Shown: positions 32,872 through 50,548 of the stretch, piece after piece
Layout of the letters: each line of letters begins with the position of its first letter
Position numbering within the stretch: position 1 is the first letter of the stretch
Source of the DNA: an uncultured delta proteobacterium
GTDB taxonomy: Bacteria; Desulfobacterota; Binatia; UBA9968
DNA length: 64,000 bases
Direction: 5' to 3'
Assembly (NCBI GenBank): GCA_963840855.1
Contig: CAWJBB010000041.1
Coordinates: forward strand, 32,001-96,000
Program-made: the position numbers and the translations under genes
The notes under the pieces: model-generated
Seen by the model: only the letters and a program-made list of their open reading frames with translations
Told to the model about the DNA's origin: nothing
Databases searched by the model: none

Positions 32872-33090
32872 TCGCCAATTCCTTTCCCGCGGGAGTCCCA
32901 AAGTAGCAGATGATAGGCATCCTTTGTCAAGGAGAGTCCGGGATTTTCTCTTTTATCACGGGGGTGTATCTGTTACCGTACGGCAGATGATCTCATCTGG
33001 CGGGGGTTCCATTAGGATGCGAAGGTGGGTTGCATTCAGGTTCGCACTGGTGGCGATCCTTGGAGTGTTGGAGTGATAGGGAAAAATGCC

Positions 33091-34095
33091 ATGAGGCAAT
33101 TTCAAGGATTATCACGTCTAGCGGTTTGTCTCATATTTATGGCATTGACCGCGGGACAATCGTTCGCCCAGGAAAAGAAAAACATTCGAATGGTGTTCGT
33201 AAGCCTGGCTTGGAACAGTGAGATTCCCTTTCGGGCGGCGCTGGCGCGAGGTTTTTTCAAGCAACAAGGGTTGAGTATCGAACCGATCCTGATTCGCGGC
33301 GGTCCGGCGGCCATAGCCGCGCTGGTCTCCGGTGAAGTTGACTTTGCCGCCATTGGCGGCGCGCAGGCGGTTTTTCGCAGCCGCGCCCGCGGATTGGATC
33401 TTTCCATCATTGGATGCACCTCCGGCACGACCAATTACATCTTGCTTGGCAACAAGCAGACTCGGACGGTAGAGGATCTCAAGGGCAAAATGATCGGCAT
33501 AACCGGAGCCGGCACATATTCGGAATTTGCCATGAAGGCGTTTCTCAGAAAATATAACATCAACCCGGACAAGGATGTTACCTTGCGGGCGATCGGCGGA
33601 ACCGTGTTGCGCGCGGCGGCCATCGAAAAGGGAATCATTGCCGCTGCGCCATTTTCGCCTGAAGACGGGGTGCGGCTCCTGAAGAGCGGTTATTCTTTGA
33701 TCAGCAACTTGAGCGAGTCTTTGGGCATACCGCAAAACATCATCGTCAGTCGCAACGAGGTCCTGGAAAAATATCCCGAGACGAGTAAACGGATGCTAAA
33801 AGCTTATATTCAAGGAATCCAGCTCGCCAAGTACAACAAGAAAGAGGCGCTCAAGGCCGGCTTCGATTCCGGCCTGACAGGGGATCCCGAAATCATCGGC
33901 GCCGCCTGGGACCTTTTCGCGCCGGGCCTTACCGCTGATTTATCGATAGTCACCTCTGGACTTCAACAAATGCTCGACGAGGACATCCGTGCCGGTCTTG
34001 TCGATAGCAAGTTCACTCTCGAAAGAGTGGTCAACGATCGTGTTCTCAAGCTCGCCCAGCAGGAGCTGCGGGTCGAAGGGCGGCTCAAACCGTAA
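33091..34095 (+). CDS. NitT/TauT-family ABC substrate-binding protein
   Basis: Signal peptide, GFFKQQGL, AALVSGEVDF, DLKGKMIGI. Confidence 0.85.
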   Translation: MRQFQGLSRLAVCLIFMALTAGQSFAQEKKNIRMVFVSLAWNSEIPFRAALARGFFKQQGLSIEPILIRGGPAAIAALVSGEVDFAAIGGAQAVFRSRARGLDLSIIGCTSGTTNYILLGNKQTRTVEDLKGKMIGITGAGTYSEFAMKAFLRKYNINPDKDVTLRAIGGTVLRAAAIEKGIIAAAPFSPEDGVRLLKSGYSLISNLSESLGIPQNIIVSRNEVLEKYPETSKRMLKAYIQGIQLAKYNKKEALKAGFDSGLTGDPEIIGAAWDLFAPGLTADLSIVTSGLQQMLDEDIRAGLVDSKFTLERVVNDRVLKLAQQELRVEGRLKP

Positions 34096-34103
34096 ACGGC
34101 GCG

Positions 34104-34523
34104 GTGGCTTCAGTGAAAGATGCAGAGCCGCAAATTTCGCTTGTCCAGAGTTCGGTCGAACGAAATGACACGCTGGCGCGTTGGAGCATTGGATGGAGCG
34201 TTCAAAACCTCGGCGCGGACCCGATTCGCATCCTAGCCGTGCGCTTGCCGCATGGGCAATTTAAGTCGGAGGAGCTTGGATTCGATCCGCCGGTCGATCT
34301 GGCGCCCGGTGCAACGAGGCAGTTTTCGACTTTGGTCCGCTGCGATGAACCGTCGGGGTTGGTTACCGAAAACGCTTTCGTGATTTTCCAGGCAAACTGG
34401 CGAGGCGAGCCGTGGCGTATATTTGTCCGGCTACGAATAGTCGTCAATGAGAAGGGCGAACCGAACGCAACAACCGAGTTGATAACGACGCAAGAGGTCG
34501 GCTTCACCGGCGTAAAATTCTAG
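34104..34523 (+). CDS. Hypothetical protein (beta-rich, possibly Ig-like fold)
   Basis: 139-aa ORF starting 8 nt after the SBP stop; no motif recognised. Confidence 0.6.
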   Translation: MASVKDAEPQISLVQSSVERNDTLARWSIGWSVQNLGADPIRILAVRLPHGQFKSEELGFDPPVDLAPGATRQFSTLVRCDEPSGLVTENAFVIFQANWRGEPWRIFVRLRIVVNEKGEPNATTELITTQEVGFTGVKF

Positions 34524-34559
34524 CGGGCGTGAGCGATCCCGAACTCAGTGGAGAAAACC

Positions 34560-34781
34560 GTGGCGGATAAAGAAAAAGACCTGTACATCCTCAGACGCAT
34601 GCGCGGCTGACGGAGCAATTGAGGCGTCGGCTTCGAAGAGACCACGGGTATGGTCTCCAATTCTTTGAAGATGGATCAGAAAAAGCTGATCAAAGAGCTC
34701 GAGCGGATCCGGAAGGCCTATGCCGAAGACGCAGATTATCAGAAACTGCGAAAAGATCTGCCGAAAGATTGGCCGCTCTGA
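34560..34781 (+). CDS. Candidate selenoprotein with two Sec residues (U-x-x-x-U), 73 aa
   Basis: GGAG RBS, GTG start, TGA at 34608 and 34620 in frame, then 52 sense codons; SECIS-like hairpin at 34631-34670. Confidence 0.72.
34631..34670 (+). promoter_or_regulatory. Candidate bacterial SECIS element
   Basis: GAGACCA-CGGGTA-TGGTCTC upper stem-loop with lower arms CTTCGAAG / CTTTGAAG. Confidence 0.68.
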
Positions 34782-34924
34782 ATCGGTTGTCCAGAGTTTA
34801 AAGTCTCGCGTCTCGTTGGATTCGCTATCAACTCTAGCCCGAGACGATCTAACGCAGTTTCTCCGAATGACGACTGAGTTCTCCTATCCCAAGCCAGCTC
34901 AAAACGCTAGACCCTAGACTTTCG

Positions 34925-35677
34925 TTATCGCAATCTAACCGTTGGTTGCCGCAGATTGAGATCCGCCACTCCACCCCAGAACTCCCGCTTGCCCGTCATT
35001 GCCTGGACATGGCCGTCCCATTCCAAGGTGAATGCAGTCAGGCCAAGTTTGACCGCGGCACGAATCTTTTTCTGGGTTTCGTCGTCCTTCGCTAGCAGGC
35101 GAATTGCGTCAATCTGACGGCTGCCGTGGCCTTCGTCCTGGGCCGCGTGGAGATCGTAGGTTTGCGCCGCGCGCGGTGAAAACCCATAGTAACCGGTTAG
35201 CTCCCGATAGACCTTCTCGGAAATTTTACCAGCGCCGCCAAGTTGGCTTTCGACGAAGGCGAGCATGGCGACGCCTTCCAACGCCGAGCGGCGCTGGCAG
35301 CACCCGATGATCATCTCGATTGCCGCTAACGTCCCGGGCGCGGGCTCGGCGTTATCAGCTTCTTCACGCGAGATGCCGCCTTCTTGGAGGAATTGCAGCA
35401 TGATATCGACGTGAGTGTGTTTGCCGCCCAGCTCTTCCATGAAATTTTCCAGGACGGTGTCCATTACCGCGTATTCCTTGGCGGATACGGCATTGATGGC
35501 CATGTAACCGAAGAAGATCGGATTCGTGCGCACCCGCAGATAATGCTGCACTTCACCCAGGATGATCTGCTCTTTGCTCCAACGGTGCTTGATGATGCCG
35601 TCGAACCACGGGTGTTGTTCCATCGGGACTTCGGCGGCGTAGCTCCACAGTTCGGCGATGAACTCGTCAGCGGTCAT
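34925..35677 (-). CDS. Heme-oxygenase-like iron-containing redox enzyme (PqqC/TenA/CADD-like)
   Basis: ENFMEELG..THVD, FVESQ, YDLHAAQDEGH metal-ligand pattern; likely start MTADEF. Confidence 0.8.
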   Translation of the reverse strand: MTADEFIAELWSYAAEVPMEQHPWFDGIIKHRWSKEQIILGEVQHYLRVRTNPIFFGYMAINAVSAKEYAVMDTVLENFMEELGGKHTHVDIMLQFLQEGGISREEADNAEPAPGTLAAIEMIIGCCQRRSALEGVAMLAFVESQLGGAGKISEKVYRELTGYYGFSPRAAQTYDLHAAQDEGHGSRQIDAIRLLAKDDETQKKIRAAVKLGLTAFTLEWDGHVQAMTGKREFWGGVADLNLRQPTVRLR

Positions 35678-35814
35678 GAATAAGGTGTAGCGCAATTGCA
35701 GCGTTATTGTCCATAGCAAGTAGAACGGGCTTAGTCTAATTCCTTCTCCCTCTGGGAGAAGGTTAGGATGAAGGCGGGAGAGGGTCGGACGCGCGATAGA
35801 GCGCTTGATTGTAT

Positions 35815-36915
35815 TTACGCGTTGGCGGCTTTTCTCGTCTGCTCCTTTTCGACTCGCGTCTTGAGCCTGGGATAGAATCTCAGCGGGTTGTCCCAGAAAA
35901 TCTTGCGCTTCAGCTCGTCGCTCACGTCTTTGCGATTGATCAAATTCGGGATGTCCTGGCTGAAGTCGCGCTGGTCGCGTTCGTGGGGATAGTCCGATGC
36001 CCAGATGAGCGCGTTGTCGTTCGCTACCTTGGCGGCGAGGGGCAGCGCCGATTCTTCGACTTCCACGGCGAAGTAGATATTGCCCTTTTTGACGTATTCG
36101 CTCGGCTTGAGCTTGCAGCGCGGCGAGTAGTGGCCTTTGCGCTCTTGTTCCTCGTCCATGCGGTCCATCATGTACGGCACCCAACCGACGCCGCATTCGA
36201 TGCAGCCGAATTTGAAATTGGGAAAAAGCTCGAACACGCCTTCGAACATCATGGCGACGAATTGGCGAATCTGCGCGAAGGGATGTTCTAAAGTATGTCC
36301 GATGGTAAAGTTGTTGACCATGTCCAACCCGAGGGACGGCATGCTGAGCCCGCCGTGCGTAGAAACCGGCACGTCGAGTTTCTGCGCTTCTTCCCAGAGC
36401 GGATAGAACTCAGGCCCGCTGTAAAGCCTTCCCGCCGGCGCCACCGCCGGAAGGACGGCTCCGACCATACCTAATTCACTAACAGCGCGGCGCAGTTCTT
36501 TCACGGCTTCGGCAATGTCTTGAATCGGCAGGAGCGCGACCCCCACCAGTCGCGGGCTGACTTTCATGAACTTGTTATAAAGCCAGTCGTTATAGGCCCG
36601 CGCCATGCAGATCGCCCAGTCTTTGTCTTGAATGGCGCCGTGGGTGAGACCCTGCGTCGGGTAAAGAACGGTCAACTCGATTTTGTTTTTGTCGAGAAAA
36701 TCTAGCCAATGATTGGCCTTGGGTCCGTCGCCGCCGCCGGCCCAGCCGCCCTTCTGGCGCAGCGAACGGAGATAGCCGTCCATCGTGAGACCCGGCCAGA
36801 AGGAATAGCTCTGGTGCCATTCCAAATCCTTATAGGGCGGGCCGATGAATTCGCGAAGTTCGCTGTCCAGTTCCATGACATGCCCATCGGCGTCGATGAT
36901 GCGGTAATCTGACAT
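35815..36915 (-). CDS. Amidohydrolase_2 family protein
   Basis: DADGH, LYPT, RAYNDW, ECGVGW, WASDYPH. Confidence 0.88.
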   Translation of the reverse strand: MSDYRIIDADGHVMELDSELREFIGPPYKDLEWHQSYSFWPGLTMDGYLRSLRQKGGWAGGGDGPKANHWLDFLDKNKIELTVLYPTQGLTHGAIQDKDWAICMARAYNDWLYNKFMKVSPRLVGVALLPIQDIAEAVKELRRAVSELGMVGAVLPAVAPAGRLYSGPEFYPLWEEAQKLDVPVSTHGGLSMPSLGLDMVNNFTIGHTLEHPFAQIRQFVAMMFEGVFELFPNFKFGCIECGVGWVPYMMDRMDEEQERKGHYSPRCKLKPSEYVKKGNIYFAVEVEESALPLAAKVANDNALIWASDYPHERDQRDFSQDIPNLINRKDVSDELKRKIFWDNPLRFYPRLKTRVEKEQTRKAANA

Positions 36916-37233
36916 TGGCAGAACCTCCTGTGTTACTTTCGATAACTTAAACCATCAGATCAAGTGTAGTCTGGTAGTTTGAATTCACGTATTTCTGGCT
37001 TGAACTCTTCCCTCCCGCAGCGGCTGCAAATAATCATACTTGTCACAGGCGATGGTAAGTTTTAGTTTAGCCATTGCATCACTTCCCGCGTCGTTTGGTT
37101 TGTTTCAAGTCCCCGAACAGATCATTACTAAAATCTCCCGTGGATTCAACCAGAACTCTTGTTTGGAATTGACAGGTCCGCGTGGGCGGTGCTAAGGGCT
37201 GAACTACGATTCCTATATTTTAAGGAGGCTCTT

Positions 37234-37980
37234 ATGCGCTTCACGGACAAATCAGTCATCATTACCGGCGGCGGCGGCAAGATCGGCAAAGCTTACGCCA
37301 TTGGCTTCGCTAAAGAAGGCGCAAAAGTCGCCTTGCCCGACATTGCCAGCGCCGATCACGTGGTGAAAGCGATCCGGGACATGGGCGGCACGGCCATCAG
37401 CATGGCGTGCGATGTCTCGGATGAAAAGAGCGTCAAGGCGATGGTCGACGAAGTGGCGAAGCAGTTCGGCGGCGTCGATGTGCTGGTCAACAATGCCGCT
37501 TACTTCATGAGCGTCAAGAAAAGCGTGTTTTGGGAAATGGCAGTCGATGAATTCGACAAAGCGATGGCGGTCAACGTGCGCGGGTCGTGGCTCTGCGCCA
37601 AAGCGGCATTTCCGTACATGAAGCAGCAGGGAAAGGGAAAGATCATCAATATTTCTTCCGGCACGGCGCTCAACGGCGGCCAGAATTATATTCATTACGT
37701 GACATCGAAAGGCGCGCTCATTGCGATGACTCGGGCGATGGCAAAAGAGCTCGGTGATTATAATATTTGCGTCAACACGGTAAGCCCAGGCTTCGTCGTC
37801 ACCGAAGGGCGGCAAGTGGATCCAGCCTTCAATGCCAGCCGCGTCGCTGGTCGCGCGCTCAAACGCACGCAGGTGGAAAATGATCTGGTCGGCACCGTGA
37901 TGTTCTTGGCGTCACCCGAGAGTGATTTTATGACTGGCCAGTTGCTCAATGTCGACGGCGGCGCGCATTTTGTGGGGTAG
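37234..37980 (+). CDS. Short-chain dehydrogenase/reductase
   Basis: TGGGGKIG, NNAA, YVTSK; AAGGAGG RBS. Confidence 0.92.
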   Translation: MRFTDKSVIITGGGGKIGKAYAIGFAKEGAKVALPDIASADHVVKAIRDMGGTAISMACDVSDEKSVKAMVDEVAKQFGGVDVLVNNAAYFMSVKKSVFWEMAVDEFDKAMAVNVRGSWLCAKAAFPYMKQQGKGKIINISSGTALNGGQNYIHYVTSKGALIAMTRAMAKELGDYNICVNTVSPGFVVTEGRQVDPAFNASRVAGRALKRTQVENDLVGTVMFLASPESDFMTGQLLNVDGGAHFVG

Positions 37981-38172
37981 GTGAGACGAGGGGGAAGGCG
38001 TTTCCTCAATCGTCATGCCCGCCCTTCGGCTGGACTCAGGACAAGCTCCAGCGGGCATCCAGGTTGCGGCGGGGGGAGATGCACAGCAGGCGGACTGGAT
38101 TTGGGGCGTAGAAATCAGCGCATTCTACGGGCTTGAAGGCCGCCGACGTTGTCCTATAATGGCCCTGAAATC

Positions 38173-38991
38173 ATGGATATCATCCTGCTCAAGGCCACCG
38201 CGGTATTGTATCTTCTGGCGACCGCGAGTTTTGTCTTCTATGTACTCGTTCGCAATACCGCGTCGCGGCTGCCGACACTAGTCTTGCTCGCTGGATTCTT
38301 GCTCCACACCTCGGCGCTGAGCGTCCATTTTCTCCAGGAAGGATATCCCGCTGTAACACAGTTTCACGAGGCGCTGACTTTCAAGAGCTGGCTCATTGTC
38401 GCGCTTTATTTAGTCATTCAAATCAAATACCGGCTCACGGTTCTCGGCGCCATTGTGACGCCGGTGGCATTCCTCATGACTCTTGCCGCCTTCGCGTTCG
38501 GCGCCGCCAGCGGTGAGCTGCCGCCGGGACTGAGGACTTATTGGCTGCCGGTTCATTTCACGCTCGCGTTCCTCGGCAACGCGGTCTTCGCTTTAGCCTT
38601 CGCGGTGAGCCTGATTTATCTGCTTCAAGAACGCGGCCTCAAGCATAAAAAGATGACCGCTCTCCTCAAGCGAATCCCGTCGTTGGAGGCGCTGGACCGG
38701 TTGAACTATCAGTTGCTCGTATGGGGTTTCCCGCTGATGACCCTCGGCATCTTGACCGGGAGCCTCTTGGCGCGCATTTACTGGGGGGATTATTGGACTT
38801 GGGACCCGCGGCAGATTTCATCGGGAATCGCCTGGCTTTTTTATGGTGCTTTGTTGCACGGGCGTATCACCGCGGGTTTGCGTGGCAAGAAGGCCGCGAT
38901 TCTTACCATGTTCGGATTCTGCGTTGTGCTTGGTTACTTTATCTGGGGCGAAACCCTGTTCCCCAGCCGGCATGGGGGCCGGTTCGAATAA
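38173..38991 (+). CDS. ccsA: Cytochrome c biogenesis protein CcsA/HemX-like
   Basis: Multiple TM helices, WGDYWTWDPR (WWD motif), first gene of the hem operon. Confidence 0.85.
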   Translation: MDIILLKATAVLYLLATASFVFYVLVRNTASRLPTLVLLAGFLLHTSALSVHFLQEGYPAVTQFHEALTFKSWLIVALYLVIQIKYRLTVLGAIVTPVAFLMTLAAFAFGAASGELPPGLRTYWLPVHFTLAFLGNAVFALAFAVSLIYLLQERGLKHKKMTALLKRIPSLEALDRLNYQLLVWGFPLMTLGILTGSLLARIYWGDYWTWDPRQISSGIAWLFYGALLHGRITAGLRGKKAAILTMFGFCVVLGYFIWGETLFPSRHGGRFE

Positions 38992-38994
38992 GCC

Positions 38995-40281
38995 GTGCAA
39001 AAAGAGATCGTCATCGTCGGTTTGAATCACCGTAGCGCGCCCATCGAAGTGCGCGAAAGCGTCGCTTTCGAAAACGGCTATGTGCGCGACGCGTTGGTGC
39101 GGTTGCGCGGCTATCCGGCCGTCCAAGAAAGCGTGATTCTCTCGACTTGCAACCGCGTCGAAGTGGTCGCGGCGGTCGCCGATGCGCAGACCGCCTGTCA
39201 TGACATGAAAGTATTTCTCGACGAGCAGCGCGCTGAGCATGCTGGGAGCAGTCTGGAGGATCATCTTTACACTTATCGGGGCGCCGATGCGGTGCGCCAT
39301 TTATTTCGCGTGGCGGCAAGCCTCGACTCCATGGTAGTGGGCGAGCCGCAGATATTGGGCCAGCTTAAAGAGTTTTACGATGCTGCGCGGCAAGCCGGTA
39401 CTGTGGGAACGGTCTTGCATCGGCTATTCCACCGGTCCTTTTTCGTGGCCAAGCGGGTGCGCACCGAGACCGGCATCGCCAGCCGCGCCGTTTCCGTGAG
39501 TTCGGTGGCGGTAGATCTCGCGAAGCGGATCTTCGATAGCTTCGATGACAAGACCGTCATGCTGATCGGCGCGGGCAAGATGGGCGATCTGATGGCGCGC
39601 CAGCTCCAGCGCAGCGGCGTGAAGAGTCTGATGGTGACCAATCGTACTTTTGAACGGGCGGTAGCGGTGGCCGAGCGGATACATGGAAGTCCGATCCTAT
39701 TCGAAGATTTTCCGCGCTATCTTAAGATGGCCGACCTGGTGATTGGCTGCACCGGCTCGCCGGAAATCCTGGTGGATGCACCGGCGGTGGAAAAAGTGCT
39801 GCGCGAGCGCAAGCAGCAGCCGATGTTTTTTATCGACATCGGCGATCGGCGAAATTTCGACTCTGCCATTAACGATATTGACAACGCCTATCTCTACAAC
39901 ATCGATGACTTGAAGGAAGTCGCCGAAGAAAATCTCCAGGAGCGATCCAACGAGGCGCAAAAAGCGGAAGAGATCGTGGTCCAGGAAGTCGAGAGTTTCG
40001 GGCGTTGGATCGGATCGCTGGAGCGCGCGCCAACCATCGCTGCGCTGCGCGCGCACTTTGACGAGATTCGCCGGCGCGAATTGGCGAGGTCCTTGAGCGG
40101 CAATCTGAAAGATTTGTCCTCGGAACAACGGCAAGCCCTCGACGACATGACCGCAGCGATGATCAACAAAATGCTGCACGGCCCGATCTCACATTTGAAG
40201 AAAGACGCGCCGGAAGAAGACGAAGAGGACATGCGGTCTATAGCCGCCTTGAAAAAGCTCTTTGACCTGGAGGGCAAATGA
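38995..40281 (+). CDS. hemA: Glutamyl-tRNA reductase
   Basis: GLNHRSAP, LSTCNRVE, SLDSMVVGEPQILGQ, GAGKMG. Confidence 0.97.
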   Translation: MQKEIVIVGLNHRSAPIEVRESVAFENGYVRDALVRLRGYPAVQESVILSTCNRVEVVAAVADAQTACHDMKVFLDEQRAEHAGSSLEDHLYTYRGADAVRHLFRVAASLDSMVVGEPQILGQLKEFYDAARQAGTVGTVLHRLFHRSFFVAKRVRTETGIASRAVSVSSVAVDLAKRIFDSFDDKTVMLIGAGKMGDLMARQLQRSGVKSLMVTNRTFERAVAVAERIHGSPILFEDFPRYLKMADLVIGCTGSPEILVDAPAVEKVLRERKQQPMFFIDIGDRRNFDSAINDIDNAYLYNIDDLKEVAEENLQERSNEAQKAEEIVVQEVESFGRWIGSLERAPTIAALRAHFDEIRRRELARSLSGNLKDLSSEQRQALDDMTAAMINKMLHGPISHLKKDAPEEDEEDMRSIAALKKLFDLEGK

Positions 40282-40327
40282 TCAGATGCCGCCGCGTAGG
40301 AGCGGATAAACTCGCGAGGTTAGTGTC

Positions 40328-41248
40328 GTGAAAACCGTCCGCATCGGCACCCGCGGGAGCGCCCTCGCGTTGGCGCAGGCCAATTGGCTGAAGGGAGAGA
40401 TCGAGCGGCAGTGGCCGGCGGCGGAGGTGAACCTTCGAATCATCAAGACCAGTGGCGACCGCTTCGTCGAAGCTTCCCTCCAGGCCATTGGCGGCAAAGG
40501 CGTCTTCACCAAAGAGATCGAAGAGGCTTTGCTCAGCGGCGAAATCGATCTCGCCGTGCATTCGATGAAGGACCTGCCGACGGAATTGGCGCCGGGCCTG
40601 GCCATCATCGCCGTGCCGGAGCGGGAAGATCCGCGCGATGTGTTGGTGGCGCGAAGCGGCGCGCGGTTGAGCGAATTGCCTGCCGGCGCGCGGATCGGCA
40701 CCGGCAGCTTGAGGCGCAAAGCCCAGCTTTTACATTACCGCGCCGATTTATCCGTGGCGCCGATTCGCGGCAACATCGATACCCGTCTCAAAAAACTCGA
40801 CGCCGGCGAGGTCGATGCCCTGGTCATGGCCGCGGCGGGACTCAAGCGCATCGGCAGGGAAGACCGCATTAGCGAATTTCTTCCTGGAGATATCTGCGTG
40901 GGCGCCGCGGCTCAAGGCGCGCTGGCCGTCGAGGCGCGCGACGATGATTCCTTGCGCGAAGAATACGAGTTCCTCGATGATATGCCGACGCATTTCGAGG
41001 TGCAGGGCGAGCGCGGTCTGCTCAAACGCCTCGGTGGCGGTTGCCATTTGCCCGTAGGGGCACGGGCTCAGGTTTATGGTGAATTGATCGAGATCATCGG
41101 CGTTGTCGCGGACCCGGGTGGCCATGAGCTTTTCAAGGCCGAACTGGCTGGACTGGCCATGAAAGCCGAAGAGTTGGGAAAAGAGTTGGCTGATCGGCTG
41201 CTCAGCCAGGGGGCGCAAAAGCTGCTGGCGCGGTTGCAGCCGGAGTAA
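40328..41248 (+). CDS. hemC: Hydroxymethylbilane synthase
   Basis: GTRGSALA, GGKGVFTKE, HSMKD, GSLRR, RGN, LGGGC. Confidence 0.97.
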   Translation: MKTVRIGTRGSALALAQANWLKGEIERQWPAAEVNLRIIKTSGDRFVEASLQAIGGKGVFTKEIEEALLSGEIDLAVHSMKDLPTELAPGLAIIAVPEREDPRDVLVARSGARLSELPAGARIGTGSLRRKAQLLHYRADLSVAPIRGNIDTRLKKLDAGEVDALVMAAAGLKRIGREDRISEFLPGDICVGAAAQGALAVEARDDDSLREEYEFLDDMPTHFEVQGERGLLKRLGGGCHLPVGARAQVYGELIEIIGVVADPGGHELFKAELAGLAMKAEELGKELADRLLSQGAQKLLARLQPE

Positions 41249-41262
41249 GCGAGTCGTAGGAC

Positions 41263-42081
41263 ATGAACGGTAACCACCCGGCGCCGGCATCGCAGATTCT
41301 GTTGGGGAAGCGCATCGTGATTACGCGGGCCCGGGCCCAAGCGGATAGCTTGGCGCGCAGAATTGAAGAGCAGGGTGGCGAGGTGATCGAATTCCCGACG
41401 ATTGAGATACATCCTCCTAGGGATCCACGGCCGCTCGAGGAAGCCATCAAAAAATTAAATTGCTACGACTGGCTGATGTTCACCAGCACCAACGGCGTCG
41501 AGAGATTTTTTGAATGCATGGCTCAACATAAAAGAAGCGTGGCCGAACTGGAGGACGTTCAAATCGCCGCTATCGGGCCTGAAACGGCGAAACGCTTGGA
41601 AACGGCCGGCGTGAAGAACTGCTTGGTGCCCGCGACTTACCAGGCCGAGGGCATTCTTGACGTCCTGAATACGGCGGCCATGCGCGGCAAGCGCGTCCTG
41701 ATCCCACGCGCGGCAAAAGCGCGAGAAATTTTACCCGAAACGCTAAGGCAGTGGGGCGCCGAGGTCGATGTCGTCGAAACCTATCGCACGGTCATTCCGC
41801 AAGCCGACACAGGCAAGCTGAAAGAAACGCTCCGGCGGCGGGCCATCGACATGGTTACGTTCACTAGTCCCAGCACAGTATCGAATTTCGCGCGGCTGTT
41901 CGACGGGCAACGGTTGGCGGATATCTTGGCCGAAACGCCGATTGCCTGCATCGGACCGATCACAAAAAAAACCATCGAAGAGCTAGGCGGTATCGCTGCA
42001 GTATCGGCGCGGGAGTTTACGATTCCCGGATTGGTATACGCTATGGTCGAATATTTCCAAGGCAATTTGCCCCCACCCTAA
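41263..42081 (+). CDS. hemD: Uroporphyrinogen-III synthase
   Basis: ITRA, FTSTNGV, AIGPET, YRT, FTSPS, CIGPIT. Confidence 0.93.
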
Positions 42082-42127
42082 CCTGCGCAAGCGGGGGAGG
42101 AAATGGGAGGGGAGGTCGGAGAAACAA

Positions 42128-43105
42128 ATGGACTTTCCGCGTTACCGGCCAAGACGACTGAGACGCAATGAAAGAATCAGGACGATGGTGCGTGAAACGA
42201 GCCTCAGCCCGAAGAATCTCATCTATCCGCTATTCATCGGTCCGGGAAAGGACAAGGTTCAGCCGGTTTCGTCCATGCCCGGCGTGGCGCAATTGTCCGT
42301 AGACCGCGCGGCGCGCGAGTGCGAGGAGGCCAGCGCGTTAGGAATACCGGCGGTAATTCTCTTCGGTATTCCGGAACACAAAGATGGCGTGGGCAGCGAA
42401 GCCTACGCTGACGACGGTGTGGTGCAGCGGGCGATTCGGCTCATGAAAGAGAAAACTCCCGAGATGCTGGTGATCACCGATGTCTGTTTGTGCGAATACA
42501 CCGACCATGGCCACTGTGGGGTGATCAAAAATGGCGACGTTGACAACGACAGCACCCTGGAGTTGCTCGCGAAAGAAGCGCTGTCTCACGCCCGCGCCGG
42601 CGCCGATATTGTCGGGCCATCGGATATGATGGATGGGCGGGTCGGCGCGATTCGCAAGTCGCTCGACGAAAACGGTTTTGCGCACACCGCGATCATGGCT
42701 TACGCGGCTAAATACGCGTCGGGATTTTACGGGCCGTTTCGCGAAGCGGCGGAGTCGACACCGCAGTTCGGCGACCGCCGCTCGTACCAGATGGACCCGG
42801 CAAACGCAGATGAGGCGTTGCGGGAAGTCGAAATGGACATCCGCGAGGGCGCGGACATCGTCATGGTAAAACCGGCGATGGCCTACCTCGACGTCGTTTA
42901 CCGCGTCAAGCAGAAGTTCGGCTATCCGGTGGCTGCCTATAACGTCAGCGGCGAGTACTCGATGATCAAAGCGGCGGGGGCCAACGGCTGGATCGACGAA
43001 CAGCGCATCATGATGGAGGTTCTACTTTCGATCCGCCGCGCCGGCGCGGACATGATTCTTACCTATTTCGCCAAAGATGCGGCGCGGCTGCTGCACCGAG
43101 AATAA
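42128..43105 (+). CDS. hemB: Porphobilinogen synthase
   Basis: [35 protein letters not shown]. Confidence 0.98.
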
Positions 43106-43106
43106 C

Positions 43107-43180
43107 AGTTCAAAACGTTCGATTCGCGAGTGCCCTGAGACGATTTGAATGACTCGAACGTTCGAAATGGTTTGAACGGA
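43107..43180. repeat. Inverted 9-nt-period GTTCAA/TTGAAC array
   Basis: Degenerate copy of the family at 43459, 50773, 56526, 58315, 62705. Confidence 0.6.
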
Positions 43181-43184
43181 AATT

Positions 43185-43448
43185 CTAAATCAAATTCCAC
43201 AGGTCTTTGATTTTACGCCTGAGGGTGCGTTCGCATTCGGCTTCCCGCCCGTCGCCGTGCGCCTGGCCATAGGATAAGCGGAAGAGCAGGACACGGGCGC
43301 CTTTGCCAAGTCGGATCAAGTAAGTGTTCGAGTCAGGGTGGTCGTCGTGGACATCTACGGTGAGCTCCTTGTCAACGGTAGACGAAATACGATTCGCCCA
43401 GGCAGCGATTTCCCGCGCGGCCTCCTCGCCCTTCTTGTCGGTGAGCAT
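43185..43448 (-). CDS. Hypothetical protein
   Basis: 87-aa ORF with protein-like composition, flanked by repeat arrays. Confidence 0.55.
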   Translation of the reverse strand: MLTDKKGEEAAREIAAWANRISSTVDKELTVDVHDDHPDSNTYLIRLGKGARVLLFRLSYGQAHGDGREAECERTLRRKIKDLWNLI

Positions 43449-43458
43449 CTAAAACGTA

Positions 43459-43558
43459 TCGTTCAAGCGGTTCAAAACGTTGAAACAGTTCAAGCCGTTT
43501 TGGATTGGATGAATCGAGACGATTTGAATCGCTTGAACGGCTTGAACGATTTGAACGG
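43459..43558. repeat. Inverted 9-nt-period GTTCAA/TTGAAC array
   Basis: CGTTCAAGCGGTTCAAAACGTTGAAACAGTTCAAG ... TTGAATCGCTTGAACGGCTTGAACGATTTGAACGG. Confidence 0.8.
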
Positions 43559-43560
43559 AG

Positions 43561-44558
43561 TCATTTTTTCTTATAGAGGCTGTCGATATAGCCGCTCTGG
43601 TCAAGTTCCCTGATAAAACTTGAATCGGCGAATTGTTCGGGTTTGGCGCTCTTCGCCCGCGGGTCCCGCTCCGCAATCTCGTTGAGAACCGTCTTCAAGC
43701 CCTCTAGGCTCGGGTACTGCTTTTTCGAAAATAGCGTTTCGCTCATGACGTTTTCGTAGCTCTTCTCCAGAAACTCTCGTTCTACGCCCGGCATGTGTTT
43801 ACCGATGGCACGGATGGTGGCTTCCTTGTCCGTCCACATTTTGTGCACTGCTTCAACGTGAGCCTTGACGTAGCGGCGGACTGTGTCCTGGTGCTCGCGG
43901 ATATATTTTTTGGTGGTTGCCGCGCCGGTGTGCTGAAACACCAACCCCATCTTCGCCACATCCGCGAGCACCGCGAGGCCGCGCTTTTCGGCCATGAAGC
44001 TGGAAGGAGGGTTGATGACCGCCGCGGTTACTTTGCCGGTCACCAACGCGTTGAGGCGCTCAGGTCCGCTGCCTACCTGCACGAGCGTTACATCTTTGCC
44101 CGGCGTGAGCCCCACGTTCCGCAGCGCAAAACGGGCGATGGAGTCGGTGGCCGAACCGAACCGGCTAATCGCCAGGGTTCCGCCTTTAAGTTGTTCCGTG
44201 GTTTTGACTCCTTGCCTGCCCATCAGTACGTAGTTGAGGGAAGTAATGCCAGAAGCGACGAACACCGAGTCGGAACCCGCCAGAGAACTGCTTACCAGGC
44301 CGGGTCCGGACACCTGGGTGATCGGCACATCACCGGAGACCAGCGCGAGAATGGCCGTCGTGCCGCCGGTGAAAAAAATCAACTGCACTTCCAGGCCGTT
44401 CTTGGTGAAGATGCCGCTGTCCTTGGCAACCCAGGCCGGCAACTGGTCGGCGCTGACAGCGCTATAGCCGACGTTGAGGCGGGTCATCTGTGCCGACGCC
44501 GAAAACGCGCAGCTAGAATAAACGCGAGGTAGATGGCGAAGGCGAGAAGCTTATTCAT
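43561..44558 (-). CDS. NitT/TauT-family ABC substrate-binding protein, frameshift in the signal peptide near 44505
   Basis: ATG 44558 MNKLLAFAIYLAFIL then shifted to AFSASAQMTRLNVGY; AISRFGS. Confidence 0.85.
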
Positions 44559-44626
44559 TTTTACTACGGAACCCTCCGGAAGACATATTTTGAAGAATAG
44601 TACCGAACGGGGCGGCTAGAAACAAG

Positions 44627-44653
44627 AAAGCCCCTGGCGGGGCAGGGGCTTTC
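44627..44653 (-). terminator. Rho-independent terminator after cytochrome c'
   Basis: AAAGCCCCTG-loop-CAGGGGCTTT hairpin followed by a U-rich tract on the minus strand. Confidence 0.7.
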
Positions 44654-44696
44654 CTGGGAGTGAATGTTTTGCCGTTGCGACTGGACGAATGACAAC

Positions 44697-45143
44697 CTAT
44701 TCGGAGTATTTGTCGGCCCGGAAGGGTTTGTGGCAATTACCGCAAGCTCCGCTCACAGCTTTTACCTTCGCATCTACGGCTCCGGCGTCACCACTCTTGG
44801 CCGCGGCTGCGAGCTCACCAGCCGCTTTGCTCAAGTTCTTGGCGTTGGCGCCGAAATCATCCGATTTTTCCCAAATCGCCGCCGTTGCCTTGGTTTTGCC
44901 TTTGGTGCTTCCCTTTGGGAAGTGTTCGACGATTTTGTCGGCGCTGCCCATGAGATCCTTCGCTTTGGCTTCCACCGTCGCGTAGTCTTTCGACTCGACG
45001 GCGCCCTTTATCGCCTTGGCAGCGGCGCTCTGGCCTTTCATCAGTTGCTGGCGCTTCTCAATGACATCGGCCTGCGCGAACGCCTGCGAAGAGAATACCA
45101 AAGTCGTGAAGATCGCCGCCGCGATCAAAAAGTATTTGCCCAT
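44697..45143 (-). CDS. Cytochrome c' / c556 (class II cytochrome c)
   Basis: Signal peptide, RQQLMK, FPKGS..AAIW, C-terminal CGNCH. Confidence 0.9.
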   Translation of the reverse strand: MGKYFLIAAAIFTTLVFSSQAFAQADVIEKRQQLMKGQSAAAKAIKGAVESKDYATVEAKAKDLMGSADKIVEHFPKGSTKGKTKATAAIWEKSDDFGANAKNLSKAAGELAAAAKSGDAGAVDAKVKAVSGACGNCHKPFRADKYSE

Positions 45144-45185
45144 AAAGATTGATATCTCCTTTCCTTTTGTGGAATTCGTTAACGT

Positions 45186-45732
45186 CTATTTTTTGTTGAC
45201 TTTCTTCACTTCATTTAAAAGCTGTTCGGTCGAGAGCAAATCTTTCTCCGTGTTCGTCGGCCGAATGTTGAGATACTGGATCACCCCCTCTTTATCGATA
45301 ATGATGTAAGATCGTTTGGCGAGTTTTCTCGGCTCGTCATAGACGCCATACGACTGCATCACTTTACCGTCTCTATCGCTCAGTAATGGGTAGTTGATTT
45401 TGGCGAAGTCTACGAACGCCTTCTGGGAAAACGTGAGCGTTGGCGCTAATCCCTAAGACTTCAGTGTTCTCGGCCTTAAACATCGCAAGATTGTCCGAAC
45501 CGGACGCCTGCAGGTCCTTGATTCAGGTTGGACTAAAATCGAGCACGTAGAAATTGATGAGTACGTTCTTACCTTTCAGGCTACTCAATTTGAGCTTGCC
45601 ACCCGAGGTGCTGTCAAGTTCAAAATCGGGAGCGGGTTGCCCCACTTCGACGGCCGCAATAGAAGAGACCGAAAACAGTGTCATGAGGGCACCGAGCATC
45701 CCGGCCAACATCGCATTTCTAACGCGTGCCAT
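45186..45732 (-). CDS. Exported AhpC/TSA peroxiredoxin with selenocysteine at the peroxidatic site (UGA 45523-45525); one indel near 45435
   Basis: VGQPAPDF...FYVLDFSPT-UGA-IKDLQ...VLGISAN...YPLLSD...YGV...KRSYIIIDKEGVI; SECIS-like hairpin; AGGAG RBS. Confidence 0.85.
45484..45512 (-). promoter_or_regulatory. Candidate bacterial SECIS element
   Basis: Minus strand TGCAGG-C-GTCC-GGTTC-GGAC-AAT-CTTGCG; G-starting loop 21 nt after the UGA. Confidence 0.7.
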
Positions 45733-45783
45733 ATGAAATCTCCTTGCCAAACGTTTGTTAACGAGCGGCCCTTTATGCCGTAC

Positions 45784-45802
45784 ATTTGACAAATTGTCAA
45801 AT
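45784..45802. promoter_or_regulatory. Perfect inverted repeat, candidate operator
   Basis: ATTTGACA-AAT-TGTCAAAT upstream of the peroxiredoxin. Confidence 0.55.
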
Positions 45803-45855
45803 TAAACTACGGGCGCTTTTGCCCTCTGCGGCCAGCTTTGCCATTATGGCTCAAA

Positions 45856-46617
45856 CTAGGGATTAAGCCTCTGGTATATCGCGTTGGCGACCTTTAAAAG
45901 CTCGTCTTTCGGCATCTCTCCGGACAGCGCATAGCTTAGACGACGGTCGAGCCAATAAAATACAGCGACCTTTCCTTGTTGGGAATATCGGAAAGCAGTT
46001 TCACGCTCTGAGCTGGGATCGGTCTTTACGTACAGGGTCAAGCGCTTGCCGCTTGGGTCCTGGTACATGAACTGCGCCACTGGTCCCTGATCGCCCGGAA
46101 GCAAGCGTCCGCCCACTAGTTCGAAGCCGAGATCGACCAGGTGCGGGACTCTGAGCTTACCGCCCAACCGCTTTGAGAGCCAGTTTACCAGGTGTTCTTC
46201 CTGCTCCGCGGTTACTTCCACGGGGTGGCGCACTTCTGGGGTGTAAACCGTATGGGCGAGGGCCGCCTGCCGGGCAAAATCAACGTCCTTTGCTGACCTG
46301 CTGGTTGTTTCTCCGCGCAGAAACCAACCCAATATTCCCCCGACAACGATCCAAGCCAGGGCCGCGGCAACGGCTTTTGCCGGGAAGGGCCAGCGGCGCG
46401 CCAAAGTTTGCCACTTCGCTGGGACAGGTTCAGCTAGCACTGGGTCGAAGAAAGCATGCAGTATCCGATTTTGCTCCTGGTAAGCTTGCACCCGCGCCTG
46501 TTCCTGTGGATTGCCGGAGAGAAAAGTTTCCACTTCGCCCCGGCGTTCCTGCGCCAGCCCGCCGTCAACATAAGCGTGTAAGTCAGTTTCTGATACGGCT
46601 GCGCTTTGGGTGGTCAT
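45856..46617 (-). CDS. Transmembrane anti-sigma factor (PrtR/RsiW-like)
   Basis: LHAYVDG, one TM helix, HPVEV...HLVNWLSKRL, LVGGRLLP. Confidence 0.88.
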   Translation of the reverse strand: MTTQSAAVSETDLHAYVDGGLAQERRGEVETFLSGNPQEQARVQAYQEQNRILHAFFDPVLAEPVPAKWQTLARRWPFPAKAVAAALAWIVVGGILGWFLRGETTSRSAKDVDFARQAALAHTVYTPEVRHPVEVTAEQEEHLVNWLSKRLGGKLRVPHLVDLGFELVGGRLLPGDQGPVAQFMYQDPSGKRLTLYVKTDPSSERETAFRYSQQGKVAVFYWLDRRLSYALSGEMPKDELLKVANAIYQRLNP

Positions 46618-47183
46618 TTGATCACCTTGAGTTGCGCCGCAGAACTGCCTCTGTTCATCATCGAGCGCAGTTGTTCGCGGCCGCGGGACAAACGGGACAT
46701 GACGGTGCCGATAGGCACGCCGAGGACCTTTGCTGCTTCGTCATAGGACAGCTGTTCTAACCCAATCAATAATACGACTTCCCTTTGTTCATGGGGCAAT
46801 CGCTGCAGGAATTTGTTCAGGTCGATTAACTCGAGCTGATTGTCGTGTGTCGGCGAAACTTGCAAATCAACTTCGTTATGCCCGATGCCCTGACTCGTGC
46901 GCCGTCGTCCGGCCTTGAGTTGGTTGACATAAAGATTGTGCATAATTGTGAAGAGCCAAGCGCGCAGGTCGCTGCCCGGACGCCAAAGTGCCATGCGCTT
47001 CCAACCCCTCTCGATGGTATCCTGCACTAGGTCTTCCGCCGAGGTGAAATCACCGGTCAACGCTCTTGCGTAGCGGCGTAGTTGCGGAATGTAGTTGATT
47101 ATGCCGTCAGCATCCGCCACGGTCGTCTCGACTCCTCGCTCATTATGACGCTGGCCGCGCGATCTCGCGAGAAACCTTTTCAT
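46614..47183 (-). CDS. ECF RNA polymerase sigma factor
   Basis: LRRYARAL..AEDLVQD, AWLFTIMHN, GTVMSRLSRGR; start uncertain. Confidence 0.92.
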   Translation of the reverse strand: MKRFLARSRGQRHNERGVETTVADADGIINYIPQLRRYARALTGDFTSAEDLVQDTIERGWKRMALWRPGSDLRAWLFTIMHNLYVNQLKAGRRRTSQGIGHNEVDLQVSPTHDNQLELIDLNKFLQRLPHEQREVVLLIGLEQLSYDEAAKVLGVPIGTVMSRLSRGREQLRSMMNRGSSAAQLKVIK

Positions 47184-47253
47184 GAGCAAACAACCCGCCA
47201 ACGGAATTTATTCCCCAAACCGGCAATTTTAGTCGCGCCGTCGGCCGCTGTTT

Positions 47254-49674
47254 CTAGCTCGCTGGTTTTAGTAAGAGCAGTGGCCAATGGCGAATTTGTT
47301 CTTCGTTGCCACTGAGTTCGATGTAGTCCTGCCTTTGCCATCGCGCCGTTTGGTCACGGAAGTGTTGAGAGAAGGGATGACCGGATTGGCCTGACGGGAG
47401 GATGAACTTTGACCGAATACTTGGCCCGGTCTCGACGATCATTCTCATGGAGGGACCGACGGTATGTTGATAAGGGTTTGAATGACGGTAAAAGCCAAGA
47501 TTGATCGTAAAGTTGTCGCCGCCAGAGGGGAAGGGCCCTACCGAGAAAACTGGACGTAAGAAGCCGATCCGGCTGAAAGCGTGATTCAAAGTCAAGGTAT
47601 GGAGCTTGCCCCACTGCCAGTGAACTTGCTCCGGACCGAGAGATTCCGTGAGTTTGGCGCAGGCCTCGGCCAGGGCCGAGCGCACCAGTTCTCCGCGTGG
47701 CCGCTCGGTAAACCAGGGTGAGGCCGGGTTACCCAGAATCTTATCGATAGGTACAATGCTCTGATTGATAATTTCGACGTAGGTAACGAAGAACTCTTCG
47801 CTCAAAGCTGGAACCAGGAGGCTCTTGATAAGCTGGTGATGAAACACATGGAAGATTGTCGCTGCGACGCTATCCGTACCGCAGTGACCGTCCCAACGAA
47901 GCAGGTAATCGGCGGCGGCCATGAGATCGCTTCCATCGGCGCGTATTGCCGCTAGCTCGGCGCTGAGGGTCGCAATTAGTTCCCTGGCGTGAAGTGAAAC
48001 AAGATCACCCTGCGTGGCTGACATGTTCTTGATTGAGTGGGTCTCGCTTGCCGCGAGCAGTTGGCGGATGCGCCGTGCACGATATGGGGGCTCGAAGAAT
48101 CCCGAAAGATAATGTTCGAAAGCGTCATCCACAATCTGATTATTGGCGTTGGCGATGGCGCCCTCAGAGGGATTGAACAGGCGCGGCAAATCGCGAAAGG
48201 GCACAAAACCTCGCCATTCATTTTCGCCGCGCCAACCCTCGCGCGGCAATACCGATGGCGCGCCGGTCCGTAGTGGAACCTTGCCGGCGAGGCTGTAGCC
48301 GATGTTTCCCAGACGGTCGGCATAGACGAAGTTTAAGCTCGGGGCGGATTGATAGGATAGCGCCTCGAGAAATTCATCCCAGTTGCGCGCGCGATTAAGA
48401 CGATAGAGACCGCTAAAATCCTGGCTCGCCTCATGGGCGGTCCAGCGCAGGCTCAAGGCTTCCGGCCCTGATAATCGCCCAGCAAAATCGCTGATCACCG
48501 GGCCGTGGCGAGTCCAGCGTACGGTTTTCTCGACCAAACCTTTCCGCCTGACGCGGATGCTTTCGCCATGGCGGTCCATCAAAAACCAGCGGCCGTCTAT
48601 TTGGTAGCGGTCAGGCTCCAACGGATGGATTTTCTCGCAATAAACGTCGACATCGTCGCACAGCGCCGCGGTAATGCCCCAGGTGATCCATCTGTTGTGC
48701 CCGACCTGGATGCCCGGACAGCCGGGTAAAGAGGCGCCCCAGACCTCGTAGCTATCATTTTGAGGTGGCTCGGCGTCGGCTTTCAAATGCATCAAGTACC
48801 AAACCGATGGCACCATCATGCGCAGGTGTGGATCGTTGCACAGAATCGCGCAGCCAGCATCGGAACGGCTCGGGCCAATCACCCAAGCGTTGCTGCCGTG
48901 CCCCGCGGGGTAACAATCGTTTGCGGCGAGCATGCCCGCGGTAAAACGCCAGAGGTGCCGCGTCGAATCCCACATAGCGTGAGTAATCGTAAAGTTGCCG
49001 TCGTAACCCAACGGATAAAGGTCGTGCAGCTTTTCCGGCTCGCCGGCGAGCTTGGCCGCGACCGCAATGGCGTTCAGGCGCGTGAACAGCGGCAGTGACA
49101 GAAGAAACGCAAAGCCTTTGCCGATTGTGAGAGTGTCCTCGGGCCGCCACGGATCGGGTGTATAATGCAGCAAGCGAAACTCCAACGGCAAACGTTTACC
49201 GCATTGCTCGATGAATCTATTAACGCCGTCGCTATAGGCTTCAAGCCGCCGCCGATCCTCCTCGCTAAGCATGCCGGCGGACGCGAGCGCGGCGCGGCGG
49301 ATGCCGATTAGGCGCATGAAATAATCGGCGTCGACGCTGTCGCAGCCGCGAAATTGGCTGGTGAGCTCTTGCCACGGAACGACAACCTGCCCGAGGATCT
49401 CGGCCAGGCGTCCCGAGAGAAAGCGCCGGTTGAAATCCATCTGCCAGAGCCTCTCCTGGGCATGCAGGTAGCCTTGCGCGAAAAATAAATCATGTTCATT
49501 CGCCGCGAAAACATGGGGAATGCCTTCGCTCTGCCAGAAGACACTCACTTGTTTTTCTAGGCCGCGAAGAGCGAGTTCGCCGCGGTAGCGCGGCAGCGAA
49601 GGTTTGGCGAGATGGCGAAGATACGGGCGGAGCAGGGCCGAAAAGACTCTAGCAGGTTGCTGAAAAAGACTCAT
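47254..49674 (-). CDS. Penicillin acylase family Ntn-hydrolase
   Basis: GIPH, AQERLWQMD, catalytic GSNAW, NDPHL, GQSGHP; start lies inside a repeat. Confidence 0.9.
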   Translation of the reverse strand: MSLFQQPARVFSALLRPYLRHLAKPSLPRYRGELALRGLEKQVSVFWQSEGIPHVFAANEHDLFFAQGYLHAQERLWQMDFNRRFLSGRLAEILGQVVVPWQELTSQFRGCDSVDADYFMRLIGIRRAALASAGMLSEEDRRRLEAYSDGVNRFIEQCGKRLPLEFRLLHYTPDPWRPEDTLTIGKGFAFLLSLPLFTRLNAIAVAAKLAGEPEKLHDLYPLGYDGNFTITHAMWDSTRHLWRFTAGMLAANDCYPAGHGSNAWVIGPSRSDAGCAILCNDPHLRMMVPSVWYLMHLKADAEPPQNDSYEVWGASLPGCPGIQVGHNRWITWGITAALCDDVDVYCEKIHPLEPDRYQIDGRWFLMDRHGESIRVRRKGLVEKTVRWTRHGPVISDFAGRLSGPEALSLRWTAHEASQDFSGLYRLNRARNWDEFLEALSYQSAPSLNFVYADRLGNIGYSLAGKVPLRTGAPSVLPREGWRGENEWRGFVPFRDLPRLFNPSEGAIANANNQIVDDAFEHYLSGFFEPPYRARRIRQLLAASETHSIKNMSATQGDLVSLHARELIATLSAELAAIRADGSDLMAAADYLLRWDGHCGTDSVAATIFHVFHHQLIKSLLVPALSEEFFVTYVEIINQSIVPIDKILGNPASPWFTERPRGELVRSALAEACAKLTESLGPEQVHWQWGKLHTLTLNHAFSRIGFLRPVFSVGPFPSGGDNFTINLGFYRHSNPYQHTVGPSMRMIVETGPSIRSKFILPSGQSGHPFSQHFRDQTARWQRQDYIELSGNEEQIRHWPLLLLKPAS

Positions 49675-49829: not shown

Positions 49830-49852
49830 AATCAGAGTTATTCAGCGGGCCG

Positions 49853-50455: not shown

Positions 50456-50548
50456 CTCTGTTCTCCCTTCATAGTGACTTTTTTTTGGGTGCCTATGATT
50501 TTTACACTAAGTAGCGAGAAAAAGGCAAAGGAAAGAGGGGTGCGAAAA

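Follow-up and report, generated by a model that had tools for sequence, protein, structure and literature searches.

A small gene with two conserved in-frame UGA codons in Candidatus Binatia, predicted to encode a double-selenocysteine protein

The window analysed here is a stretch of 64,000 nucleotides (nt) from an uncultured delta proteobacterium of the class Candidatus Binatia (assembly GCA_963840855.1, contig CAWJBB010000041.1, positions 32,001 to 96,000 of the forward strand), and the subject of this work is a small gene at window positions 34560-34781 (+). An earlier reading of the bare letters, made without database searches (hereafter the sequence-only reading), had proposed that a 73-residue protein is hidden there, that two in-frame UGA codons four residues apart encode selenocysteine (Sec), and that a hairpin behind them may act as the selenocysteine insertion sequence (SECIS) for both. 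The parts it listed are all present: a Shine-Dalgarno-like GGAG (34550-34553, +) 6 nt 5' of the start codon, a GTG at 34560, in-frame TGAs at 34608-34610 and 34620-34622 (+), which would encode Sec17 and Sec21, the 73-residue translation, and a terminal TGA at 34779-34781. It was also right that the program-made list of open reading frames (ORFs) misses the gene, reporting only a 43-residue piece from the ATG at 34650.

Two hairpins accompany the internal TGAs. Hairpin A (34619-34636, +; UUGAGGC / 4-nt loop / GCUUCGA) begins 8 nt after the first UGA and holds the second in its 5' arm; the sequence-only reading had overlooked it. Hairpin B, the candidate SECIS (34638-34657, +), pairs GAGACCA (34638-34644) with UGGUCUC (34651-34657) around the loop CGGGUA (34645-34650). 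The comparisons reported below make us confident that a genuine gene lies at 34560-34781 and that its product is a cytoplasmic protein of 73 residues in which both internal UGAs are decoded as Sec through SelB and Sec-tRNA(Sec).

The reading frame and its two TGA codons

The read-through protein, with U given as C in the query, was compared with 60 related genomes of the class. It matched 51 places in 48 of the 60 relatives, and the window's genome itself, with E-values from 1e-17 to 1e-43; every match among the relatives has exactly two internal TGAs, and the other 12 genomes have no real match. Codons were compared at 48 of the 51 places (two of these loci belong to unpublished genomes, G015 and G009). 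TGA stands at both aligned codons in 48 of 48, and the terminal stop varies; counts across these relatives are not independent of one another. Each of 185,579 species, represented by a single genome, was then scanned for the pattern; 231 stretches matched, 214 of them confirmed relatives. Among the best 80 stretches from this species-representative collection (the 80 loci), 79 have TGA at both positions and one, L141 in a Chloroflexota assembly, has TGT at both. Their true stop codons are divided among TGA (30 loci), TAG (29) and TAA (21).

The carriers are mainly Candidatus Binatia, often labelled delta proteobacterium or Syntrophobacteraceae, and a second group belongs to Chloroflexota / Ca. 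Limnocylindria; the few other labels are possibly binning noise. Assembly errors do not explain the TGAs, both of which are found again in about 100 independent assemblies. There is no frameshift or extra stop in any of 128 loci, nor, among 93 distinct sequences, any indel that moves the two parts of the gene out of frame, and, when an order and a second phylum are compared, the two flanks show 50-70% amino-acid identity. The window's genome itself holds a further copy on contig C56 (17,513 bases), which is 98% identical over its whole length to C41:65171-82606, a region of the window's contig that includes window positions 33171-50606. Because the identity extends over the whole 17.5 kilobases, we rejected a second paralogue and regard the C56 copy as a strain variant or redundant contig.

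Protein databases hold both tails of this protein and full-length relatives of another type. A word-index protein search returned tails of 43 and 51 residues and four full-length metagenome gene calls with Trp (W) at both sites. When a profile was searched exhaustively against 1.84 billion representatives, 124 matched, and 96 of these start at the Met that follows the second TGA. When the 28 others were fetched, 22 proved to be full-length (some N-truncated) with Cys-x-x-x-Cys at exactly the two Sec columns. These Cys-type relatives (about 71 residues, G-N-C-[YF]-x-x-C; P0084, P0077, P0061 and others) are homologous to the Sec type over their whole length, and in mixed Sec/Cys alignments (A3, A4) the invariant columns are Cys/Sec17, Cys/Sec21, Phe25, Thr28, Met31, Arg64, Pro68 and Pro72. 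UGA in one branch and Cys in the other, at both columns, is the classical signature of a Sec/Cys family. Since L141 has TGT twice and 22 of the 28 fetched proteins have Cys-x-x-x-Cys, residues other than Cys at the UGA positions are not supported. The Trp-containing proteins (P0002-P0005, public metagenome gene calls) are full-length with Trp at both UGA positions, and in P0003 and P0005 Trp also takes the place of the terminal stop and is followed by run-on residues. Because W stands at the terminal stop as well in these two, we read all four as gene calls in genetic code 4; the protein sequences suggest short contigs called with translation table 4.

The codons 5' of the first UGA carry ordinary coding constraint, as the proposal of a read-through gene implied. 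In 103 distinct sequences the entropies at codon positions 1/2/3 are 0.93/0.54/1.46 in the 12 codons before UGA1 and 1.04/0.59/1.47 in the C-terminal part, with variability in the order position 3 > 1 > 2 in both. Because the upstream entropies almost equal the C-terminal values, we conclude that the first 16 residues are translated in frame. Leu, Arg and Gly codons in this part vary synonymously, and the codon just before UGA2, for the invariant Asn20, alternates only between AAT and AAC. Homologues do not begin after the second TGA: their start, an ATG (GTG in the closest relatives), lies 14-16 codons before UGA1, and in most of them a GGAG/GGAGG-like motif precedes it. Met31, the only alternative start, is invariant also in the Cys-type proteins, where an internal start is not needed. 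In the nine codons from UGA2 to this Met the entropies fall to 0.24/0.09/0.31 and the wobble positions of GGC, GGC, TTC, GAG, ACC, ACG and GTC are frozen. The 13 codons behind the second TGA hardly vary, even at their wobble positions. Judged by its codons, the conservation between UGA2 and the Met codon exceeds what the protein needs.

Conserved hairpins and the selenocysteine machinery

Hairpin B had been described as a perfect 7-bp stem, GAGACCA/TGGTCTC, with the loop CGGGTA starting 22 nt after the second UGA and 34 nt after the first, and this is what the sequence holds. The lower-stem extension added to it, CTTCGAAG/CTTTGAAG, is present in the window, but only the closest relatives keep its 3' half (codons S-L-K). 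In an alignment of 93 distinct sequences, 97.5% of the cells in both hairpins pair, compared to 27-56% when the 3' arm is slid. Hairpin B has 99.8% of its cells paired and five of its seven pairs never vary (consensus GAGACC[A/G] / CGGGYA / UGGUCUC); hairpin A has 95.1% paired (consensus (U/C)UGA[G/A]GC / four-nt loop / GCUUCGA). The pair-preserving changes in hairpin A are GU to AU (18 sequences) and GC to GU (2), none of them compensatory, and the two hairpins together show three changes, all one-sided. Because only such one-sided changes occur, the support for the hairpins is conservation and not covariation.

Both structures distinguish Sec-type from Cys-type genes. The mean register probability of hairpin B, from partition functions, is 0.90 in 92 distinct Sec-type sequences versus 0.19 in 66 distinct Cys-type sequences, which are more GC-rich; for hairpin A in the same two sets it is 0.74 versus 0.00. 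In the natural TGT+TGT locus L141, hairpin B stands at 0.78 and hairpin A is lost. As a separate observation, the wobble bases that flank hairpin B (columns 36/57 of alignment A10, window 34637/34658) change together across clades: a Glu-codon wobble A goes mostly with a Ser-codon wobble C, and G mostly with G, so that no standard pair is possible. This joint change may reflect shared ancestry or a non-canonical contact.

Bacterial SECIS elements, as described for bSECISearch, have an apical loop about 16-37 nt after the UGA and a G near the start of the loop. Hairpin B conforms to this rule, as had been proposed, with its near-universally paired stem and CGGGYA loop occurring in the Sec type only. 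Its invariant loop contains GGU, as does the loop of a hairpin (GUCCCC-GGUCU-GGGGAC) that follows the single in-frame TGA of fdhA in the same genome. The distances from UGA to loop in the genome's own SECIS elements are 18 nt in fdhA and 33 nt in selD; because they bracket the range, one hairpin could plausibly serve the two UGAs at 22 and 34 nt. A single SECIS for both codons is thus plausible, though the claim stays unproven because two hairpins are conserved. Like canonical bacterial SECIS elements (fdhF of E. coli, fdhA and selD of the window's genome), hairpin B is a GC-containing hairpin after a UGA with GGU or GU in its apical loop. It differs from them in that two UGAs 12 nt apart precede it, that a second conserved hairpin contains the second UGA, and that its stem and loop are invariant across two phyla instead of covarying; its binding of SelB is a prediction.

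The Sec machinery was then searched for in the window's genome and its relatives. A selA-selB-selD cluster lies on contig C1 (the window is on C41, in a bin with 8% contamination), where selA scores 616 bits and selD 383 bits, the latter with one in-frame TGA at ...AAG-U-AAKLGP. The sequence-only reading had asked for selA, selB, selC and selD; the first, second and fourth were found, selB in two frames, and selC, the tRNA-Sec gene, was not found in this incomplete assembly and is present in five of five complete relatives (73-77 bits, anticodon TCA). selA is over the cut-off in 57 of the 61 genomes of the order, and G012, the one 100%-complete relative without selA or selD, also lacks the small gene. 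By gene content, this Binatia order is a clade that uses selenocysteine.

Evidence against selenocysteine decoding and the rival readings

Several observations weigh against the decoding of both UGAs as Sec. Selenium in the protein is a prediction from sequence comparison. The single-sequence folding check proposed in the sequence-only reading gave it no support, the fold being unremarkable (z = -1.44, with 17 of 200 shuffles folding as well); because the region alone folds no better than shuffles, the case rests on comparison. Homologues with TGA or Cys at both positions and a covarying hairpin had been named as possible support; the former were found and covariation was not, since 0 of the 14 hairpin pairs change on both sides. 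With conservation as their only support, part of the hairpin signal could be protein-level, reflecting the motif FEET.GMVS. SelB-binding loops are expected to have a 5' G, and the loop of hairpin A is mostly CUCG, without one. In the window's genome, selB (C1:38613-40500; L013, L014) matches as a pair of abutting segments whose reading frames differ. The frame changes at a TTATTTT run near C1:39976-39989, and the gene is either wrongly assembled or broken by a genuine frameshift. tRNA-Sec was not found in this 94%-complete assembly (best Rfam score 43 bits against a 47-bit cut-off), is not among 40 tRNAs reported by ARAGORN, and was not found by blastn with the genes of five relatives. Finally, neither selA nor selD is over the cut-off in three assemblies that carry the small gene, G003 (60% complete), G025 (96%) and G029 (86%).

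These last gaps, that is the apparent frameshift in selB, the tRNA-Sec not found and the three carriers without detectable selA and selD, together with the four gene calls that have W at both sites, would fit read-through without selenocysteine, in which near-cognate or suppressor decoding, or a local change of the genetic code, inserts Trp, Cys or Gly. We consider this improbable, although it is the best placed of the alternatives. The genetic code is standard here, because TGA ends the same gene in 30 of the 80 loci, and the W calls point, as far as protein sequences can tell, to a code-4 artefact. Only Cys replaces the residue at the UGA sites, as expected for Sec, and conservation of the hairpins is confined to genes with UGA. 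The wide presence of selA and tRNA-Sec in the clade, and the joint absence of selA, selD and the small gene from the complete genome G012, argue in the same direction.

A slightly less probable alternative takes the TGAs as ordinary stops: a 16-residue leader peptide would end at 34608, hairpin B would be an attenuator or terminator, and the real product would be the 43-residue ORF from ATG 34650. Gene callers do report only this ORF, and the 96 profile matches that start at its Met agree with it. The ATG also lies at the loop-stem junction of hairpin B, so that the hairpin could gate initiation, and in a consensus scan hairpin B together with CAATTCTTTG resembles a terminator. The terminator reading was rejected, however, because homologues do not keep the T tract: in them CAATTCTTTG is replaced by AAC-ACG-CTT, AAC-GTG-CTC and similar codons, the next codons being AAY followed by variable Ser/Thr/Ala/Val and Leu codons. 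The internal "stops" are TGA in 127 of 128 loci and never TAA or TAG, whereas all three codons serve as true stops. Homologues with Cys run without a break across both UGA sites, and Met31 is invariant in these proteins, which start upstream of it. The codon of Asn20 and those from UGA2 to the ATG change mainly at synonymous positions in frame, and, as described above, no indel in the 93 distinct sequences has shifted the two parts relative to each other.

A non-coding RNA element or a pseudogene in decay, resembling a protein gene by accident, is scarcely credible as an account of the conserved block: nucleotide conservation at 34620-34660 is extreme and beyond the protein's needs, but the locus has no Rfam match at E <= 1, its flanks show coding periodicity and substantial amino-acid identity, a confident fold is predicted for the product, and the 128 loci are free of frameshifts and extra stops.

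Selenocysteine decoding of both UGAs accounts for the Cys or TGA at both positions of the homologues, the upstream coding and the Sec genes, and a protein with two Sec residues four apart remains the reading that we favour. Outcomes contrary to it had been named beforehand, namely residues other than Cys at the two positions, homologues that start after the second TGA, no coding conservation upstream, a genome without Sec machinery and TGAs without support in the reads. None of them occurred, the last point being judged by the recurrence of both TGAs across independent assemblies.

Neighbouring genes, predicted fold and a possible role

The gene directly upstream (34104-34523, +) encodes a 139-residue protein and ends 36 nt before the start of the predicted selenoprotein. 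A homologue occupies the same place on the same strand in 47 of the 48 fetched loci of the relatives and in 78 of the 80 loci, typically with a gap of 10-40 nt. The protein has no Pfam or NCBIfam match. AlphaFold2 predicts an eight-strand β-sandwich (predicted local distance difference test score, pLDDT, 93.4), for which Foldseek against the PDB finds only generic β-sandwich matches (template-modelling score, TM, <= 0.41). It has 540 homologues and, among the matches listed, all named ones are called hypothetical. Its invariant residues include Trp27, Trp31, Asn35, Pro49-His50, Asn90, Phe92, Trp104 and Arg109, and its tail reads ...TELITTQ.VGFSG. Six Limnocylindria loci (L131, L137, L147, L157, L159 and L160) have two tandem copies of the 139-residue gene about 400 nt upstream, and in L160 a fragment of a luciferase-like monooxygenase (PF00296) lies further upstream of them.

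On the other side, a convergent gene (34925-35665, -) encodes a haem-oxygenase-like iron-containing redox enzyme (PF14518 Haem_oxygenas_2, E 1.7e-17; PF03070 TENA_THI-4, E 1.1e-08), with a weak, below-cut-off match to the CADD family. Such a gene is adjacent in 43 of the 48 and 71 of the 80 loci. Its start is uncertain: a 423-residue ORF on the minus strand (34925-36196) overlaps an amidohydrolase gene (35815-36915, -) by about 380 nt, and the start probably lies near 35665, as the shorter reading that results has its Pfam match at residues 39-210. The gene at 33025-34095 (+), for an NMT1/THI5-like substrate-binding protein (Pfam NMT1, E 5.3e-22), belongs to variable context outside this core, with a homologue in only 28 of the 80 loci. 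Further recurrent groups of neighbouring ORFs were set aside, since most are shadow ORFs of GC-rich genes.

The Cys-type clade, which is distant, was examined at 80 metagenome loci (L165-L244), of which 56 have more than 1100 nt of downstream sequence. In all 56 a TenA/PqqC/Haem_oxygenas_2 gene lies directly downstream on the same strand, and the 139-residue gene is absent from the 80 loci. Because the Cys clade lacks the β-sandwich gene and keeps the enzyme, the partnership with the haem-oxygenase-like superfamily is the feature common to both branches. The Cys-type relatives thus resemble the Sec type in pairing with a haem-oxygenase-like/TenA/PqqC gene, and differ in having Cys for Sec, neither hairpin and no β-sandwich gene; their partner enzyme is co-directional and has an N-terminal zf-C2H2_9, a domain seen in L196, the one Cys-type locus scanned against Pfam, whereas the Sec-type partner is convergent. 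In L196 (5232-7626), as in the other Cys-type loci, the small gene heads an apparent operon; the gene after it encodes, in L196, the zf-C2H2_9 + TenA/PqqC/haem-oxygenase-like protein. Next comes a protein with Ta0938 and Abhydrolase_3 domains, the former a hint of an archaeal host, and a 1449-residue PKD-domain surface protein is encoded upstream. Prediction of a complex between the Cys-type small protein and its adjacent enzyme (A8, A9) gave a score of 0.00 and a mark of 0.32, which is no verdict and speaks neither for nor against binding.

AlphaFold2, run with a 46-row alignment, predicts for the small protein itself a domain of four helices (2-21, 25-35, 40-54 and 58-66; pLDDT 87.4). In this model Sec17 and Sec21 are one helical turn apart on one face at the end of helix 1, where the pair adjoins the other invariant residues, Phe25, Thr28, Met31, Arg64, Pro68 and Pro72. 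A sequence profile search of the PDB found nothing below E 0.3, and Foldseek against the PDB gave no significant match (best E 2.3, TM up to 0.55). The look-alikes in the PDB and in the ESM Atlas, the latter with TM 0.55-0.65, are helix-turn-helix domains, all below the tools' bars. Tetra-helical helix-turn-helix domains (GerE/LuxR type, sigma-70 region 4) are indeed similar in size and four-helix topology. Unlike in those domains, the would-be recognition helix of the small protein (40-54) is its least conserved part, and the conserved residues surround the Sec pair and the C-terminal tail; no helix-turn-helix model of Pfam matches the small protein or its Cys-type relatives.

No family had been recognised in the letters, and no described one matches the protein. 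NCBIfam 20.0 returned no family at E <= 10, and the best Pfam-A model, PF22227, reached E 0.063 and 14.3 bits against a cut-off of 26. Nine Cys-type relatives had nothing over the cut-off in Pfam or NCBIfam, and by this measure the Cys-type family is likewise undescribed. None of the 119 prokaryotic selenoprotein families in Table 1 of a 2026 review (PMC13188914) is a small protein with U-x-x-x-U. We found no literature that links Binatia with selenocysteine or describes the family, survey supplements and a survey of groundwater metagenome-assembled genomes being outside the scope of the search, so that a listing there is possible; nor did we find any that links haem-oxygenase-like diiron enzymes with selenocysteine. 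Described double-Sec families likewise have two UGA-encoded Sec residues within a few residues of each other, a presumed metal or redox site, and a downstream mRNA structure close by. The present family differs from them in its U-x-x-x-U on an α-helix, its four-helix domain without a significant neighbour in the PDB and the lack of an NCBIfam match at E <= 10, also to the models of those families. It is seemingly an undescribed selenoprotein family within a known class of bacterial selenoproteins.

These findings can be assembled into a mechanism. Translation would start at GTG 34560, and at UGA 34608 and again at UGA 34620 SelB-GTP-Sec-tRNA(Sec) would be recruited by the downstream mRNA structure. 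Hairpin B, with its invariant, GGU-containing loop, would be the SelB-binding SECIS for both codons. Hairpin A would melt as the ribosome advances, before UGA2 reaches the A site, and most likely spaces or times the two events; alternatively, it may be a second, non-canonical SECIS for UGA1. In the protein, the two selenols most likely act either as a selenolate/diselenide couple or as ligands of a soft metal, and this redox or metal centre would serve the neighbouring diiron enzyme. The small protein probably works with the presumably co-transcribed 139-residue β-sandwich protein and the haem-oxygenase-like diiron enzyme, for example as reductant or metal donor. Two points count against this role: the enzyme gene is convergent and not co-transcribed in the Sec-type loci, and the fold searches, on which a functional assignment might have been built, yielded only sub-threshold helix-turn-helix look-alikes.

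The most far-reaching version of this proposal is speculative, and we put it forward as a conjecture more likely wrong than right. It holds that the family is Sec-obligate and belongs to abundant, largely aerobic soil lineages (Binatia and Limnocylindria); that one SECIS is used twice, with hairpin A sequestering the downstream UGA and acting as a timer for the reloading of SelB; and that the Sec-x-x-x-Sec diselenide or metal centre acts with the β-sandwich protein to activate the diiron oxidase by reducing or metallating it. That Sec is found in 79 of the 80 loci and Cys in one suggests that selenium is needed for function.

The family has been invisible to standard annotation, since the public gene calls seen are either the 43-residue tail or a code-4 misreading, and yet Binatia and Limnocylindria, two major uncultured lineages of soil and groundwater, carry it widely. 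To our knowledge, neither lineage is usually considered rich in selenoproteins. Two UGAs 12 nt apart, combined with two frozen hairpins, would offer a compact natural system for successive recoding by bacterial SelB. As far as we know, the physiological reductants and metal donors of the haem-oxygenase-like diiron superfamily are mostly unknown. The partnership with such an enzyme, kept by the Sec and the Cys branch alike, suggests that haem-oxygenase-like diiron enzymes have an accessory factor so far overlooked; if the proposal is true, the Sec-type protein would serve this superfamily as an accessory factor of a new, selenium-dependent type.

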